Source: Escherichia coli (GTDB lineage: Bacteria; Pseudomonadota; Gammaproteobacteria; Enterobacterales; Enterobacteriaceae). Taken from it: a stretch of DNA of 64,000 nt. Under the pieces are notes generated by a model. It ran no database searches. It was not told where the DNA came from and was given only the letters and a program-made list of their open reading frames with translations. Location of the stretch: NCBI RefSeq assembly GCF_013315695.1, contig NZ_CP054354.1. One strand, 5' to 3'. The translations under genes and the position numbers were made by a program. Shown in pieces: positions 35,138 to 41,626 of this stretch; the stretch's first letter is position 1, and each line of letters starts with the position of its first letter.

Positions 35138-35281
35138 GAGGATTCCTCCATCGATAAATAGATAAATTTCGGGATGAGGCTGAGTGGAATTAATGCGAAC
35201 AATCGCCGGTAATGACCGGGCAGGGCTGAATTCAGCAGGGCATTTTCACAGGAACAACAGAAGGTGGTGAGAGACAGGCAC

Positions 35282-35312
35282 AAAAAAGCCGACTGGTGAG
35301 GCCGGCTTTTTT
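35282..35312. terminator. Hairpin flanked by A-run and T-run (bidirectional terminator geometry) at the start of type I module 1
   Basis: aaaaaagccgactggtgaggccggctttttt; on the minus strand the hairpin is followed by a T-run. Confidence 0.55.
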
Positions 35313-35375
35313 GCGATCCCAGGGAGAGTGGGTGGCTCTGGCCCGGAGGAAGTCTCTTTTCAACTAACGTTACCA
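35313..35375 (-). ncRNA. Predicted antisense sRNA for module 1 (cis-encoded upstream, minus strand)
   Basis: 35335-35367 repeats 35570-35601 (in the toxin leader) at ~31/33; a minus-strand transcript here would be complementary to the leader and end at the 35282-35312 terminator. Not demonstrated. Confidence 0.3.
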
Positions 35376-35673
35376 GAATATCGTTATATTCACCTGATCG
35401 CAATCTGTTCGTTACAGTCTATTGTTCCGGGAGTAGCGATATCGCCTGAAACAAGTATAATCAGCAAGTTAGCCTTGTCTGGAGACTTACCTTCGCATCA
35501 ATCCATCGGGACTATGGATCTGTGCTATTCAAAGACCTGGGCGGACAAACAGGTGGTGCTGCGTCTGGTGCTCTGGCCGGAGGAAGTCTCTTTTCAGCTA
35601 ACAATGAAAGAGCTGTTGTGACAGGCAATGTAAGAGTAAACAACAGTGATTTCCTCCATTGATGGAGAAACGG

Positions 35674-35769
35674 ATGATTAACCTGTTAATCATCGTTCTC
35701 AGGGCGGTTGTTGCTGTGGCTAACGCAGTGATAGCTCTCCTGGAACTGATCCGGGAACTGGTTGACTGA
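35674..35769 (+). CDS. DinQ/TisB-like type I toxin, copy 1 (31 aa, single transmembrane helix)
   Basis: MINLLIIVLRAVVAVANAVIALLELIRELVD; GGAG RBS 6 nt upstream next to a CCTCC stretch; strong terminator 35791-35816; below the ORF-track size cutoff. Confidence 0.6.
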   Translation: MINLLIIVLRAVVAVANAVIALLELIRELVD

Positions 35770-35790
35770 TAATCCCGGAAACGTACTTAA

Positions 35791-35819
35791 GGGCAGAGGG
35801 TCACCGCCCTCTGCCCTTT
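35791..35819 (+). terminator. Terminator hairpin after toxin copy 1
   Basis: gggcagaggg-tcaccg-ccctctgccc followed by ttt. Confidence 0.55.
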
Positions 35820-36010
35820 AATAATCTACGGACAGATTACTTTCTGTACTTCCAGAGCCTGTTTCTGTGAGTCAAACATGAGCTGGTTTTTACCGACTAC
35901 ACCCAAGTAAATATATTCGATATCTCCCATTTGCCGTATTTTCGTAAAATTCAACAGGAAATATTCAACGGGAGTGAGAGAACTGCTGTCCGGGGAGGAG
36001 GTACAGACGC

Positions 36011-36044
36011 AAAAAAACCGACTGGTGAGGCCGGTTTTTTTGCG
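36011..36044. terminator. Hairpin with flanking A/T runs at the start of type I module 2
   Basis: aaaaaaaccgactggtgaggccggttttttt, paralogue of 35282-35312. Confidence 0.55.
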
Positions 36045-36105
36045 ATTCCGGATCGAAGTTGGTAGCCCTGACCGGAAGATAACTGCCTATAACTGACTAT
36101 GAAAT
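36045..36105 (-). ncRNA. Predicted antisense sRNA for module 2
   Basis: 36071-36101 repeats 36254-36292 (toxin 2 leader) at ~26/30; repeat sequence differs from module 1. Confidence 0.3.
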
Positions 36106-36357
36106 AATACGGCTGAAATAATATTTCTGCAAGCACAGTATAAGTATATACTCGGTGTGTCAGCTTTGAGGCACGTTCTTTCCGGCATATCGTTCACCGG
36201 GATGAACAGGTTGCAAGTCCTGGCCAAAACATCAGGTGGTGCTGGTTTTGGTGCTCTGGCCGGAGAAGAACTGTCTATAACTGACACTATAGAAAACGTG
36301 GCGACAGGCAATGTAAGGGCAAACCACGGTGTTCTTTCTCCATTGATGGAGAAGCGG

Positions 36358-36453
36358 ATGATTAACCTGTTAATCATCGTTCTCAGGGCGGTTGTTGCTG
36401 TGGCTAACGCAGTGATAGCAATCCTGGAACTGATCCGGGAACTGGTTGACTGA
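36358..36453 (+). CDS. DinQ/TisB-like type I toxin, copy 2 (31 aa)
   Basis: MINLLIIVLRAVVAVANAVIAILELIRELVD, one substitution from copy 1; same RBS context and terminator. Confidence 0.6.
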   Translation: MINLLIIVLRAVVAVANAVIAILELIRELVD

Positions 36454-36473
36454 TAATCCCGGAAACGTACTTA

Positions 36474-36503
36474 AGGGCAGAGGGTCACCGCCTTCTGCCC
36501 TTT
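36474..36503 (+). terminator. Terminator hairpin after toxin copy 2
   Basis: gggcagaggg-tcaccg-ccttctgccc then ttt. Confidence 0.55.
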
Positions 36504-36515
36504 AACAAAATATGC

Positions 36516-36692
36516 TCAGGTTAAAAATCGAAAACCTTCCTGCACTTCCTGTGCCTGTTCCCGTGAGTCAAACATGAGCCGGCTTTTACCCGGAACTCCC
36601 CAGGAAATATATTCTACATCCACCCACCATTTTCCGTATTCTTCATACGGTCCGGATATCACTTTAGTGACAAATGCATCAACCAGGTTCAT
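36516..36692 (-). CDS. Hypothetical small protein (58 aa) convergent with toxin copy 2, possibly co-transcribed with nuc
   Basis: AAGGTG RBS then ATG at 36692; MNLVDAFVTKVISGPYEEYGKWWVD...; a frameshifted paralogous stretch lies at ~35830-35950. Confidence 0.35.
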   Translation of the reverse strand: MNLVDAFVTKVISGPYEEYGKWWVDVEYISWGVPGKSRLMFDSREQAQEVQEGFRFLT

Positions 36693-36842
36693 TTTTACAC
36701 CTTTCTGTTATTCTGCTTATTACGACCAGCAGACAGCAAATATTAAAAATAACGCGGCGGTAAAAATGGCAATTTTTTTCCATGCTGTATTTTTGCCATT
36801 TATTTTCTTTGAAATGGTTTTTTTCTTCATATCAGCAAATAA

Positions 36843-37310
36843 TTATTTCTTATTCTGTTTTCTCCAGGTCCATGGTGGTACCGGATTTTTATCTGCCCAT
36901 AATCCCCGCTTCAGGGCGCGGGCATCACGCTGGAGCGGCGGGAGAGTATAGTCATTATTGTAGTCCGGGTACACCCAGGCAGCGCCGTTACGGACCTGCC
37001 AGCGATTTGCTTCTGTGCCGTCAGCGGTATAGACCCGGCCGAGAATACGGCCATACCTGTCTGTCTGCGCGTATTGCACGGTTACGGGCTTTCCGGCCAC
37101 CAGGTCCTTCAGCTGAGTGGCTGACCAGCGTCCAAAGGGCTGTTTCTTTTCCGGTGCATCAATATTAGCCAGACGGACCCTGACAGGCTTTTTGTCCTGT
37201 AATATTTCCAGCGTATCACCATCAAGAACGCGGATGACGTGCCCCTGAATCTGTGCAGCACAGAGAGAAGCGGAAAAAATAATGGTGAGTGAAAAGATAT
37301 ATTTTATCAT
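36843..37310 (-). CDS. nuc: Secreted thermonuclease (micrococcal nuclease-like)
   Basis: 155 aa; signal peptide then VIRVLDGDTLEI...VRVRLANIDAPE, matching SNase active-site pattern; GGAG RBS. Confidence 0.85.
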   Translation of the reverse strand: MIKYIFSLTIIFSASLCAAQIQGHVIRVLDGDTLEILQDKKPVRVRLANIDAPEKKQPFGRWSATQLKDLVAGKPVTVQYAQTDRYGRILGRVYTADGTEANRWQVRNGAAWVYPDYNNDYTLPPLQRDARALKRGLWADKNPVPPWTWRKQNKK

Positions 37311-37412
37311 TTCATCGTCTCCTTTTTATTTATGAAAACAGGTGCAATTAATATTGCGAAATAATAACGTTCAGGTGTGTTTTTTTTGGCAGTGTGATAC
37401 TTCACGCAGGGC

Positions 37413-38093
37413 ATGAATTCCAGTACGCTGATATCCGTGATGATACGGCAACAGATATCCGGTGACGGTATGCAGGAACATATTGATTATCAGATTGAGA
37501 AATATCAGTTCAGGGCCAGGAATGAGTCACCGCGACTGATGCGCCAGTGGGAAGATGTCATGCGTGAATGCCGTGATACCGGAGCAGGAGCCAGGGAGCG
37601 GCTGCGGATTGCCTTACTTAATGTTGATTATGTGACCAGTTTTGAACTGCCGTTTCGTCTGCTGTTAACCCGGACACCGCAGATGATTGACAGCGTGCGG
37701 CGGGAATGGCAGCTCAGCCAGAAAAAAGTTGTATTCAATGAGCGGCAGCGGGGATGTGTATACAGTCTGCAGAATGACTTATCCGGCGTGCCGGATAGCT
37801 TCAGTTACAGTCTTGCGACGCGAATACGGCGGGCGGACAGCTATGGCATGACGACGCGTTGTTTCACTGATATAGCCGGGCAGGTTAAAGCCCCGACAGC
37901 ACGGCTGAAACTGGCGCTGGAAAGCGGGTTAATTGTCACCGCGCTGGATGGTCTGTTCTGGCTTGGTATTCAACGTATTGCCGCAGATGTGCAGCGGCTG
38001 CGTCAGTCCGGAATGACAATCATCACCCGGGATGTTGAGGTCTCAGACTCGCTGACCGGAACCACACGGGTTGTTTCCGGGTACAGCCTTTGA
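37413..38093 (+). CDS. Hypothetical protein (226 aa)
   Basis: Long ORF, no clear RBS at any candidate start; 3' end overlaps the convergent 38043-38294 ORF by 51 nt. Confidence 0.45.
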   Translation: MNSSTLISVMIRQQISGDGMQEHIDYQIEKYQFRARNESPRLMRQWEDVMRECRDTGAGARERLRIALLNVDYVTSFELPFRLLLTRTPQMIDSVRREWQLSQKKVVFNERQRGCVYSLQNDLSGVPDSFSYSLATRIRRADSYGMTTRCFTDIAGQVKAPTARLKLALESGLIVTALDGLFWLGIQRIAADVQRLRQSGMTIITRDVEVSDSLTGTTRVVSGYSL

Positions 38094-38294
38094 TTTATGC
38101 AACAAAGTATCGCAGCGTCGAATATGAGCTATGGCCAGATTTTTGTTAATCGTGGTTGTTGCAACATGTAAGGCGAATGACCACACTATTCTGGCACGCT
38201 CGTAATCATGCTGAAATTCTGCTTCCTGTCCTGCCGTGATGAGTTCCGACCAGGACATACGGCGAAGTGTATGTCTGTCAGTAATATCCGTCAT
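38043..38294 (-). CDS. Small putative regulatory protein (83 aa), possibly PerC-like
   Basis: GGAGGAGG upstream of ATG; YERARIVW...AIAHIRRC loosely recalls PerC-type motifs; weak assignment. Confidence 0.4.
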   Translation of the reverse strand: MTDITDRHTLRRMSWSELITAGQEAEFQHDYERARIVWSFALHVATTTINKNLAIAHIRRCDTLLHKSKAVPGNNPCGSGQRV

Positions 38295-38506
38295 GAGCTC
38301 TCAGCCTCCTCCTTCGTATTTCCGTCAGAAACACAAACGCCCCGCAGAGAAAATTCGCCAACATTCTCCTTTTTAATGGCGCGCAATGCATCGCGGCAGG
38401 CCCGTTCGGTATGAAAGGCCTGGCTGTGCACCGCCAGTGTGGGCTGACGGGCATCACCGGAAGAGACATTAAAGGGCGATGAAAGCCAGAAAATCAGTAG
38501 CCACAT
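38291..38506 (-). CDS. Hypothetical small protein (71 aa) with hydrophobic N-terminus
   Basis: GAGGTG RBS 6 nt before ATG; N-terminal MWLLIFWLSSPF. Confidence 0.5.
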   Translation of the reverse strand: MWLLIFWLSSPFNVSSGDARQPTLAVHSQAFHTERACRDALRAIKKENVGEFSLRGVCVSDGNTKEEAESS

Positions 38507-38509
38507 GCG

Positions 38510-38878
38510 TCACACCTCGTCCTTTTTATGCGGGTATCTGGACAGAATATTGAGCGCCTGTAATGGCGCTTCATGCATTTCACGGATACAACGGGCATCG
38601 GTGATATTTTCCCGGTAATGTGTGGTTTCCAGCATCATATGATGCATATGGAGCATCCGGGCCAGGGCTGCGCGGAGTTCTTCAATATGTTGTTCATGGG
38701 AATGCTGGCGGGGCTGTATCCGGCAGAGAGGGATAACCTCCACATCATCCGGGTGCGCGCGAAGCCACGCGTCAGTGACTGCAATGTCGTCAGTGTAAAA
38801 CCATGTGCCGGATGTCCCGTTGGCCAGAAAACGCATTTTCCAGGCTTCTGGGGTGGCGGTTGTGTTGTTATCTTTCAT
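38510..38878 (-). CDS. Hypothetical His-rich protein (122 aa)
   Basis: ATG at 38878 after GGTGG; ORF track start 38893 is upstream alternative. Confidence 0.5.
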   Translation of the reverse strand: MKDNNTTATPEAWKMRFLANGTSGTWFYTDDIAVTDAWLRAHPDDVEVIPLCRIQPRQHSHEQHIEELRAALARMLHMHHMMLETTHYRENITDARCIREMHEAPLQALNILSRYPHKKDEV

Positions 38879-39177
38879 GGTGCCACCACTCATTCAACAG
38901 GCTTAATGCTGTCCAGGCGCAGTCTGCTCAGACTGTCGTGGCTGCCACAGCGGCGTCCAGTGCTTTTGCTGTAGCACTCCTGCCCCCTGATACACCATGC
39001 CGTTGGCGTTTCGTAGAGGCTGACACGTCGGGTTTTATCTTTAATGATGAGAAGCCCGGTGTGAGTTTTTGTCTTTTTCATCGGTGGGGTACAAACGCAG
39101 AAATTTTGTTGTCATTACATCATCAGTTTTAGCCTGCAGAGACGCTGAAAAATCAGCGTTTTCAGACCCTGTTCAGG

Positions 39178-39420
39178 TTAGTGAATATTCTTGCCTGGCC
39201 TTTCGGCAATATCAATCCCCTGAAGTTGCATGGATATCCCATGCCCATTGAGCATCTGGCTGTCCATGGAATGGATACCGCATGTCATCATCAGGTTGTA
39301 ACAAAGCGTACTCAGCATGGCGAGTGCCTCTTCTGAGGATTTACAATGTGTGTTCATAAGGGCCAGAAACTGCTCAACAACATCCGGGTTAATGCTGGTA
39401 CTGTGTATTTCATCCTTCAT
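39178..39420 (-). CDS. Hypothetical small protein (80 aa)
   Basis: AAGGA RBS 6 nt before ATG at 39420; ORF track extends to 39498 without RBS. Confidence 0.4.
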   Translation of the reverse strand: MKDEIHSTSINPDVVEQFLALMNTHCKSSEEALAMLSTLCYNLMMTCGIHSMDSQMLNGHGISMQLQGIDIAERPGKNIH

Positions 39421-39749
39421 GATGTGTCCTTGTTTTTTATTATTTTGCATTTCAGAAAATAACACGATGCCTGCAGCCCGGAAAACAGATGTGTGCACAC
39501 GTAGTCACTTTCCGGCTTTATTTCTGTCCCTGACACAAAATACGTGGTGGCATGAAAAGGATTGTGGCGGACTGGAAAACGATTAGAATAGCGGCGGGCG
39601 CTTGAGGCTGTATGCCGAAAGCGTTTTGTGGACGGCATGTAGCAGAAAGCCCCAGGCGATTTTTTTATCAATCAACCCAGGGCCCACTGTAATGCCTCAA
39701 CAACATTATAGTAGCCCGATGACGGCCGAAAGGCAATGGAGGGGCTGCG

Positions 39750-39902
39750 ATGCCACAACGAACGTTTTTAATGATGTTAATCGTCGTCTGTGTGACGATA
39801 CTGTGTTTTGTCTGGATGGTGAGGGATTCGCTTTGCGGATTTCGTATCGAGCAGGGAAATACGGTGCTTGTGGCAACGTTAGCCTACGAAGTTAAACGTT
39901 AA
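39750..39902 (+). CDS. Hok/Gef-family type I toxin (PndA-like, 50 aa) with overlapping mok-like frame
   Basis: MPQRTFLMMLIVVCVTILCFVWMVRDSLCGFRIEQGNTVLVATLAYEVKR fits the Hok pattern (...R.SLC....G...V.A.LAYE.K); overlapping ORF 39692-39895 ends 7 nt before the hok stop, as mok does; below the ORF-track cutoff. Confidence 0.7.
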   Translation: MPQRTFLMMLIVVCVTILCFVWMVRDSLCGFRIEQGNTVLVATLAYEVKR

Positions 39903-40039
39903 CGGGCAACACGGCGGTAGAGAATCTGCCGCCGGATTGTTGCGAAGGCTGACCTCAATGCGCCTTGTTTGTCTTTTTTACCGGACGACTGCTGGTTGCT
40001 GCTGTCCGGCAGCTATTATTTTTTCCGTCCTGTGCGTCA

Positions 40040-41626
40040 TCAATTATGACAGTCGCTCTCATTTAGTTGTCTCTGGTTAGATGTATTATTAGATATTTTC
40101 GGGGTAATTCGATAAAAGTTATCCACTTCAGCACCAGACTGAATGATATATGCAATAAGATCTAAACGATGAATCTCGTATCGTGTACGTAACTCCATCA
40201 TTTCACGCCATGCTAAAATCCTTGATGTTTTCAGTTCAGCCTCTATAAGTTTCCATGTGTTTGTTGAGATGGCATGTTCTTCCAGCTGACGTAACGAGAA
40301 CCTATCACTAATGACCAACCATCCCCATCCTCGAGTATGTGCCCATTTGCGACCTGCATTACTTTTTATTCTCGTGAGACTCAAGGTCATTCGGTCTGTT
40401 GGCTTCACTTCCATAAGTAGGCACCGACCATCAACTGTCGCAATGAGTAAATCTGGATAGTATTTTTTTGATTTGTTTTTAAAACAATATGGAATAGAAA
40501 ATGGTTGTTCTTGATAGAAAAGAACCTGATCGCAACATTCTAATAGATTCATTATTTTAAACTCAAGCCCTGATTCGTACTGGACTGTACGACCTAATTT
40601 TTGAGAGTAAAAGAATCCAGATATGTCAGTATCATTAACCGCTCTCTGTGAACATAGCTGTTCTACGGGGGGAGGAGGTGCGATATATTTTGGCCAATGT
40701 GTATTGTCTAGCCATTTACTGAATATGAACTCAACTCTTTCTTTCTTGATTCGGGCTCTTTCCTGAGCGCGAGCGTGTGCTAATTCTGCTCTTCGTTCAC
40801 GTAACCTCTGCTTTTGTAATTGTGATATTAATGAGAGCGAACTTTTTATTTCATCTCGTCTTGCTTTAGGAATGCCTGCGGTAAAAATAATGAATTTGGC
40901 GGCTAAGTCAGAGGATGTAACGAAATCCCGATGAACAATACGATAAATCCATACTGCTATATCATATGGTGAATTACCTATTGAGTTAATAAGGGCTTTA
41001 AGGCAAGCTCCAGGTGTCCCTTCATAGCGAGATTTAGCAGCTAGTAAGCCAAGGGCTCGTTCCTGAAGTTGTCTTACCCTTTCACGGGAAATTCCTAATT
41101 TGACGGCAATATCTGCCAGAGAATGAGGTGAATCATCTGTGCCGAGTCGCATTAGAAGAATATATTGATGTCGTTTATTAGATAAACTTTCGATAGCAGA
41201 ATGAATTAGCATAATGACATCATGTTCATCGGCTATATAATCTTTAAAATCTGTATTGGGTTGGCAGAGGGGGAGTGGGGTATTTTGTTTAAAACTATTC
41301 TTTTGTATTTCAACTTTATCATGAGCAATTGTTTTTGCAGTGCTCAATGATATTAAATTATTGATGATACTATTGTGTTCTTGGCGAGGAATCTTGTTGA
41401 AGTAATTGCTGAGATCATTCACCGTGTTTATATCGTTGAACTCAAGAAACTCAGAAGGAAGCAGGCGTTTGATTGCTCCACGTATTCCCCCGGACGATCG
41501 TTGATGTGTTTGAGTAAGTTTTTTTAGCGAGACGCCCTCCGCTATGGATACGAGAAGACGCTGTAACTCTTCAGTATTCCATGGAGTACCATGTCGTGCT
41601 GGAAAATTGCTGCGGGATTCAGACAT
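40040..41626 (-). CDS. AT-rich multi-domain protein: Myb/SANT-like N-terminus, sigma-70 region-4-type HTH, C-terminal TnsA-like PD-(D/E)xK endonuclease (528 aa)
   Basis: GTPWNTEELQRLL (SANT-like W..EEL), SLADIAVKLGISRERVRQLQERALGLL (sigma r4/LuxR-type HTH), QYESGLEF...YYPDLLIATVDGRCLLMEVKP (E...PD...EVK nuclease core). Domain calls by eye. Confidence 0.65.
   Translation of the reverse strand: MSESRSNFPARHGTPWNTEELQRLLVSIAEGVSLKKLTQTHQRSSGGIRGAIKRLLPSEFLEFNDINTVNDLSNYFNKIPRQEHNSIINNLISLSTAKTIAHDKVEIQKNSFKQNTPLPLCQPNTDFKDYIADEHDVIMLIHSAIESLSNKRHQYILLMRLGTDDSPHSLADIAVKLGISRERVRQLQERALGLLAAKSRYEGTPGACLKALINSIGNSPYDIAVWIYRIVHRDFVTSSDLAAKFIIFTAGIPKARRDEIKSSLSLISQLQKQRLRERRAELAHARAQERARIKKERVEFIFSKWLDNTHWPKYIAPPPPVEQLCSQRAVNDTDISGFFYSQKLGRTVQYESGLEFKIMNLLECCDQVLFYQEQPFSIPYCFKNKSKKYYPDLLIATVDGRCLLMEVKPTDRMTLSLTRIKSNAGRKWAHTRGWGWLVISDRFSLRQLEEHAISTNTWKLIEAELKTSRILAWREMMELRTRYEIHRLDLIAYIIQSGAEVDNFYRITPKISNNTSNQRQLNESDCHN

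Follow-up and report, generated by a model that had tools for sequence, protein, structure and literature searches.

An apparently intact pnd toxin–antitoxin cassette of the R16 type on an IncB/O-type conjugative plasmid of Escherichia coli

The 64,000-nucleotide stretch of Escherichia coli DNA analysed here (from contig NZ_CP054354.1; hereafter the window) contains a 50-codon open reading frame (ORF) that is overlapped by a longer frame, an arrangement that the original prediction took for a Hok/mok-like type I toxin, and which raises the question of which member of this toxin family is present and whether the RNA elements that would control it are there as well. We consider it very probable (approximately 0.93) that the locus is an intact pnd cassette, made up of the pndA toxin gene, the pndC leader frame and the gene for the pndB antisense RNA, and that this type I toxin–antitoxin system of the Hok/Sok family is the allele of plasmid R16 (IncB). 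There is nothing new in the locus as such: pnd is already known and publicly annotated, and this allele was first described on R16. Since pndA is annotated in public records, it had been “missed” solely through the 60-aa cut-off of the ORF track that accompanied the DNA, which is also the reason that the original prediction gave. The value of the result lies mainly in annotation; in biological terms, the locus is one more copy of a textbook addiction module, here on the backbone of a resistance or virulence plasmid of IncB/O type. The features on which the argument draws are collected in Table 1.

Table 1. Features of the pnd cassette and of the neighbouring DinQ-like modules, in positions of the window
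Feature	Position	Strand	Remarks
AgrB-like RNA match	35280-35367	-	37.4 bits, slightly under the gathering score of 40
dqlB copy 1	35674-35769	+	DinQ-like ORF MINLLIIVLRAVVAVANAVIALLELIRELVD
AgrB-like RNA match	36009-36096	-	47.7 bits
dqlB copy 2	36358-36453	+	one residue different from the copy at 35674-35769
Putative pndA/pndC mRNA promoter	39562-39589	+	-35 TTGTGG (39562-39567), 16-nt spacer, -10 TAGAAT (39584-39589)
tac element	39596-39607	+	GGGCGCUUGAGG; 5′ end of the mRNA, pairs with fbi
hok-type mRNA leader	39596-39752	+	about +1 to the pndA AUG; full-length match to Rfam RF01794
Predicted PndB antisense RNA	39701-39640	-	~62 nt; ends inferred by alignment
ucb-like anti-SD GCCC	39649-39652	+	predicted partner of the pndC Shine-Dalgarno
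pndC (mok analogue)	39692-39895	+	67 codons plus stop; overlaps pndA
PndB (Sok analogue) promoter	39736-39708	-	-35 TTGCCT (39736-39731), 17-nt spacer, -10 TACTAT (39713-39708)
pndA	39750-39902	+	ATG start, 50 aa; Hok/Gef-family membrane toxin; ORF list and Pfam
Stable hairpin	39913-39933	+	GGCGGUAGAGAAUCUGCCGCC; predicted in all folds
fbi element	39953-39965	+	CCUCAAUGCGCCU; 3′ partner of tac
Terminator-like hairpin and T-run	39993-40025	+	from the consensus scan; 3′ of fbi

We found that the product of pndA (MPQRTFLMMLIVVCVTILCFVWMVRDSLCGFRIEQGNTVLVATLAYEVKR, from the ORF list) matches the Pfam family HOK_GEF (PF01848) over profile positions 3–42 of 42, scoring 47.5 bits where the curated cut-off is 22 bits (E=1.3e-12), in agreement with the predicted Hok/Gef character of the short ORF. 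A Shine-Dalgarno (SD) sequence, GGAGGGG, lies 5′ of the gene, and residues 6–24 of the peptide are hydrophobic (mean Kyte-Doolittle value 2.95), forming the expected N-terminal transmembrane segment. An alignment to Hok, PndA and SrnB had been proposed alongside the original prediction; in ours, which took in Hok-R1, Flm, SrnB, HokA, PndA-R483 and one further Hok-family sequence, the peptide kept the family-invariant residues C14, T16, L18, F20, L28, C29 and A45. Among these are both family cysteines, C14 and C29, whose counterparts in R1 Hok are C16 and C31. Identity over the alignment was 92% to PndA-R483, 50% to HokA, 43% to SrnB and 32% to Hok-R1.

The coding sequences (CDSs) of “PndA_R16” and “PndA_R483” are given in the supplement of a 2025–26 survey of Hok proteins (bioRxiv 10.1101/2025.08.07.668861), and comparison with the first of these showed pndA of the window to be identical at 153 of 153 nucleotides and 50 of 50 amino acids. 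Because of this nucleotide identity to the published CDS, we refined the name from “Hok/mok-like” to pndA/pndC/pndB, R16 allele. This is the sole refinement that the original prediction needed; what it had observed was confirmed, and its interpretation was supported. The protein collection also contains the exact peptide, which it calls “Hok/Gef family protein” and “Protein PndA ... PNDA1_ECOLX” (UniRef). The authors of the survey counted pnd among the studied Hok homologues, used R483 PndA as a toxic control, and failed to clone the R16 PndA CDS without mutations, which suggests that its product is toxic (bioRxiv 10.1101/2025.08.07.668861).

The frame of pndC is open from 39602 to 39895, with an ATG at 39692, and its stop codon lies 7 nt ahead of the pndA stop (ORF list), just as had been claimed for the longer of the two frames; a putative SD, AGGG(C), is located at 39679–39683. 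The reading of this overlap as the classic mok arrangement also held. In 7/7 pnd variants examined, the frame is open and ends at the toxin end minus 7, and it matches the mok frame of R100/R1 with a small difference in offset: the 67-aa pndC frame stops 7 nt short of the pndA stop, and the 70-aa mok frame of R100 stops 4 nt short of that of hok. The protein collection already has the exact 67-aa product, labelled “hypothetical protein” or “plasmid stability protein”; near relatives in its cluster are named “PndC” or “counter protein to PndA.” A Pfam search of the product matched no family, which fits a role for pndC that is exerted via its translation and not via the protein.

At the RNA level, the Rfam model RF01794 (“sok”) matched the leader with 124.7 bits (E=5e-28), well over its gathering score of 59. 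The match is on the toxin strand and finishes in the pndA AUG, and the toxin strand was likewise the one matched in 9/9 further hok-type leader matches, so that the model describes the 157-nt hok-type mRNA leader and not the ~64-nt antisense RNA. Automatic annotation from RF01794 would thus misplace the “antitoxin,” assigning it both the wrong strand and the wrong extent, and the true antisense gene must be placed by alignment. Within the leader are tac and its metastable partner, ucb, the SD and start of pndC, the target of PndB, and the SD of pndA. A Vibrio homologue (L009) and a degenerate IncF remnant (L008) gave no RF01794 leader match at the gathering threshold, and both were excluded from the RNA comparisons.

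The RNA from 39596 to 40026 folds far better than shuffled versions of itself (z=-5.35), with its 5′ end closing onto the 3′ region. In the minimum free energy (MFE) folds of both the full-length and the truncated RNA, GCCC (+53-56) was predicted to pair with the pndC SD, GGGC (+84-87), and an equivalent SD/anti-SD pairing was predicted by MFE folding for R100 hok. The pndC SD is accordingly modelled as sequestered by the upstream GCCC, and the SD-mok/ucb pairing described for R1 is of the same type (PMC9841398). In the fold of the truncated RNA, tac was paired with +19-28, just 3′ of tac itself, resembling the metastable hairpin that has been described (PMC9841398). MFE folding gave no counterpart of the published “open” form of the 3′-truncated mRNA for pnd, nor did it do so for the R100 hok control; since the control behaved in the same way, we attributed this to a limit of the method and dropped it as a test. 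In the loop predicted to be the target, CCUCAACAA (39695–39703), the letters CUCA can be read as a YUNR (U-turn) motif, which we set aside because a motif of 4 nt is too weak to serve as evidence.

RNA folding for fbi and tac elements had been suggested as a further check, and the long-range pairing of 39596–39607 with 39953–39965 was indeed present. It comprises 12 pairs at -20.3 kcal/mol (G1-U, G2-C, G3-C, C4-G, G5-C, C6-G, a bulged U, U7-A, U8-A, G9-C, A10-U, G11-C and G12-C) and also forms when the full-length RNA is folded by MFE. Of 2000 shuffled 13-mers, 17 reached this energy, and none of the 289 other 13-mers of the same mRNA did so. The pairs were taken from RNAduplex, with shuffling as a control, because a MAFFT alignment of the full mRNAs misplaced the fbi of distant homologues. 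When pnd, srnB, IncHI2 hok and R100 hok were compared, two-sided compensatory changes were seen at four positions of the helix (4, 6, 7, and 8). At position 4, srnB and IncHI2 hok have U-A where pnd and R100 hok have C-G; C-G at position 6 and U-A at position 7 are replaced in srnB by U-A and C-G, respectively, and U-A at position 8 is replaced by G-C in IncHI2 hok.

The hok CDS of R100 is that of R1, and the R100 equivalent of fbi, GAAGCGCC, ends at +398, in agreement with a full-length hok mRNA of 398 nt. The hairpin at 39913–39933 sits where the truncated hok mRNA of R100/R1 has its terminal hairpin, and by analogy it is likely to protect the 3′ end of the mRNA in its processed, active form. 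The primary transcript could have its 3′ end near 39964–39985, or at the terminator-like hairpin that ends at ~40025, a possible transcription stop that may be common to the convergent gene at 40040–41626. The terminator-like hairpin is not conserved in R483-type pnd loci, and so may not belong to the cassette.

We placed both promoters by aligning the locus to R100/R1, srnB and IncHI2 hok. In the mRNA promoter, the -10 box holds a conserved position, 6–7 nt 5′ of the leader start, in all pnd variants, in srnB and in IncHI2 hok, and we infer from the sequence that this is a plausible weak promoter. A consensus promoter/terminator scan, which needs at least 9/12 consensus matches to call a promoter, called neither the mRNA promoter (3+5 of 12) nor the PndB promoter (4+4 = 8/12), as each falls just under the thresholds of the scan; for the mRNA promoter, a sub-threshold score fits a weak promoter.

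The original prediction had pointed to 39700–39800 on the minus strand as the place to look for a Sok-like promoter, and the promoter found there aligns with that of R100/R1 Sok. Column by column, it corresponds to TTGCGC-17-TATCCT in R100/R1, TTGACC-18-TACAAT in srnB and TTGCAT-17-TACGCT in IncHI2 hok, and a block, GGCTA, is invariant throughout this alignment. The start of Sok was located using the 5′ end of R1 Sok, which we take to be GACUAGACAUAGGG..., and the complement of which was found in R100 at mRNA +101 to +125. The R100 Sok 5′ end thus falls 9 nt beyond the A of the mok start codon, and the aligned position, 39701, is equally far from the A of the pndC start codon. Folding of the predicted PndB RNA leaves 12 nt free as a 5′ tail, ahead of a long hairpin and a short U-rich tail, and PndB-like folds are adopted by R100 Sok and by the R483-type and srnB equivalents; in a consensus fold of the antisense RNAs of six lineages, 6 of the 19 pairs show two-sided compensatory changes. 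The 5′ tail of PndB is complementary to the pndC start codon, and an arm of its hairpin to the pndC SD. We therefore predict that a Sok/PndB-type antisense gene with a promoter of its own is present over the pndC start.

We also compared the cassette with experimentally known relatives. From pnd of R16 it has no detectable difference in the pndA CDS, and the best-matching whole plasmid has an IncI1/B/O replicon. With the experimentally dissected pnd of R483/R64 (IncI1) it shares the architecture, leader, tac, fbi, pndC frame and antisense promoter, at ~89–92% DNA identity from the promoter through fbi. The differences from R483 amount to 10/153 nt and 4 aa in pndA (V13I, F31L, I33L, and E34Q), to a single bulged U in fbi where the R483 type has a 1x2 internal loop, and to the sequence 3′ of fbi, which in R483-type pnd is unrelated to the window. 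The hok/sok (parB) system of R1/R100 belongs to the same Pfam family and has both cysteines, an overlapping mok-type frame, a 5′-GGCGCUUGAGG tac that pairs to a 3′ fbi, a sequestered leader-frame SD, and an antisense promoter and RNA at an equal relative position with the same 5′-tail-plus-hairpin fold. Hok differs, however, in sharing just 32% of its residues with PndA, and the pnd leader is ~20 nt shorter than that of hok, the toxin AUG being at +154/155 vs. +174. The srnB/srnC system of F has the family and the regulatory layout in common with pnd, and its tac/fbi helix is preserved via three two-sided compensatory changes, whereas the N-terminus of its toxin (43% identical overall) differs from that of PndA and its leader frame is organised otherwise, with no mok-like ATG frame detected by the same search.

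The mechanism that we propose is modelled on the hok/sok paradigm (PMC9841398, for R1, and PMC4147584). Elements supported directly by our analysis (the ORFs, their family, the identity to R16, the covariation of tac and fbi, the sequestration of the SD in the predicted folds, and the conservation of the antisense promoter and hairpin) are combined in it with what the literature on R1, R483 and R64 says of the transcripts, their 3′ processing, coupled translation, cleavage by RNase III and killing, all of which would apply here by analogy. A stable mRNA of ~370 nt would be made from the weak promoter, with tac at its 5′ end paired to fbi at its 3′ end and the GCCC box hiding the pndC SD, such that the full-length RNA would be neither translated nor bound by the antisense RNA. 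Slow 3′ trimming, probably to the hairpin at 39913–39933, would then take off fbi, whereupon the leader would refold and the ribosome-binding site of pndC would be exposed; translation of pndA would depend on translation of the overlapping pndC. In plasmid-bearing cells, a strong antisense promoter would supply the unstable ~62-nt PndB, and its pairing with the pndC start region would block translation and lead to cleavage by RNase III. In plasmid-free segregants, PndB would decay first, and PndA, presumably a single-pass inner-membrane peptide of 50 aa, would be made and would kill the cell.

Evidence on what pnd does for its host plasmid comes from relatives of the cassette. The native R483 pnd locus brings about post-segregational killing (bioRxiv 10.1101/2025.08.07.668861), and inactivation of pnd led to rapid loss of R64, as cited in PMC4083329. 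In the related IncK plasmid pCT, deletion of pndACB left stability unreduced over ~80 generations and had no effect on conjugation, growth or competition (PMC4083329), which indicates that a maintenance phenotype is not guaranteed in an IncB/O-type backbone. The pCT result is the kind of finding to be expected if pnd were a functionally silent or redundant passenger, with stability owed to partitioning, the two DqlB modules and other systems, and so are the inability of chromosomal hokA, hokB and hokC to mediate post-segregational killing (bioRxiv 10.1101/2025.08.07.668861) and the presence of two more type I toxin modules within ~4 kb. We nevertheless think it unlikely that pnd of the window is such a passenger, as all of its regulatory elements are intact, the locus is 100% identical across many plasmids in differing hosts, the overlapping frame is kept in all variants, the R16 PndA CDS resisted intact cloning in a manner suggestive of toxicity (bioRxiv 10.1101/2025.08.07.668861), and the maintenance of R64, as cited in PMC4083329, needed pnd. 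A wider reading, speculative and in our estimation quite improbable, is that the two tandem dqlB/agrB-like units and pnd, which lie between trbA and excA, make up a co-selected, mutually backing “addiction island” within the transfer region, or that they act in establishment after conjugation and not in classic segregational killing, with pnd exchanged between backbones as a discrete recombination unit. If this were true, mutual backup could account for the phenotype-free deletion of pnd in pCT.

We give very little credence to a main selected role other than addiction, whether phage exclusion of the abortive-infection type or a function linked to conjugative transfer. Such a role could be argued from the position of pnd inside the transfer gene cluster, by excA and trbA, and from phage exclusion by a relative: Pecota and Wood reportedly described, in 1996, the exclusion of phage T4 by R1 hok/sok. 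The cassette is, however, also carried on IncF and IncHI-type backbones away from any tra setting, and the conjugation frequency of pCT was unchanged by the pndACB deletion (PMC4083329). As for the notion that the small ORF and the frame overlapping it arose by chance in non-coding DNA, to which the short length of the ORF alone might lead, its probability is negligible; it is refuted by the Pfam match (E=1.3e-12), by the Rfam match (124.7 bits) and by the nucleotide identity to a published toxin gene, that of R16, and it is also at odds with the thousands of homologous plasmid loci.

The pnd cassette lies in a setting familiar for this system, the window being the transfer region of a conjugative I-complex plasmid of IncB/O type. 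Over 8 kb around the locus, identity is 99.9% to an E. coli plasmid of 86 kb that is typed as IncI1/B/O, MOBP and MPF_I. On one flank of pnd are trbA, the two dqlB genes, a thermonuclease-family gene and an HTH-domain gene, and on the other a 528-aa TnsA-like/sigma70-region-4 gene followed by excA and traY; this site, between the trbA side and excA/traY, is the usual place of pnd in I-complex plasmids. A 601-bp locus sequence was present in 1890 plasmid records, nearly all of them conjugative plasmids, in which the ORF is annotated as “Hok/Gef family protein,” and identity is 100% in at least 13 of the public plasmids, which come from E. coli and Shigella. A recombineering primer from the pCT pndACB study (PMC4083329), compared by eye, is an exact match to 39652–39691.

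DNA homology between R16-type and R483-type pnd stops exactly at the fbi end, 39964, and in one plasmid group pnd homology starts at the mRNA -10 box, 39583. These sharp edges suggest that the cassette has moved as a discrete unit between IncI, IncB/O/K/Z, IncF and pESI-like backbones. The 528-aa gene next to it (40040–41626, minus strand), which is convergent with pnd, encodes a Sigma70 region-4 HTH and a TnsA-like N-terminal endonuclease domain. It is missing from p86 (L001), a plasmid that is otherwise ~99% identical, and it appears to match pCT_066, the “unusual putative sigma factor” of pCT, the inactivation of which gave no phenotype.

Several other loci showed variations on the pnd or Hok theme. 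In the K. michiganensis plasmid pPIMR (L004 337-621), the pnd leader is partly duplicated in tandem, with Rfam matches at 337–458 and 464–621 and a single pndA. The IncF plasmid pEcQE11-421-1 (L008 401-621) has a pnd-like fragment with 78% identity over part of the query and no annotated gene; the fragment adjoins an IS3 transposase and is probably a decayed remnant. More distant Hok-like tblastn matches (38% identity; H64/H65) fall under genes annotated as “DUF5431 family protein” on Enterobacter and Klebsiella megaplasmids, and it may be that the annotated genes there represent the overlapping mok-type frame, not the toxin.

The original prediction had further placed two DinQ-like modules near the toxin, and these were borne out by the two dqlB ORFs, by the AgrB-like match that lies ~300 nt upstream of each on the minus strand, and by the PGAP name given to the genes in near-identical plasmids, “DinQ-like type I toxin DqlB.” The dqlB gene has been treated in recent plasmid papers. 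Together, the two dqlB genes and pndA span 35674–39902, or ~4.2 kb, in accord with the 4.5 kb first given for the three type I toxins. A cut-off of 60 aa in an ORF track can thus hide well-known type I toxins, three of them within ~4.2 kb in the present case. The two DqlB/AgrB-like modules are arranged in tandem (35280–36453), with a period of 684 bp.
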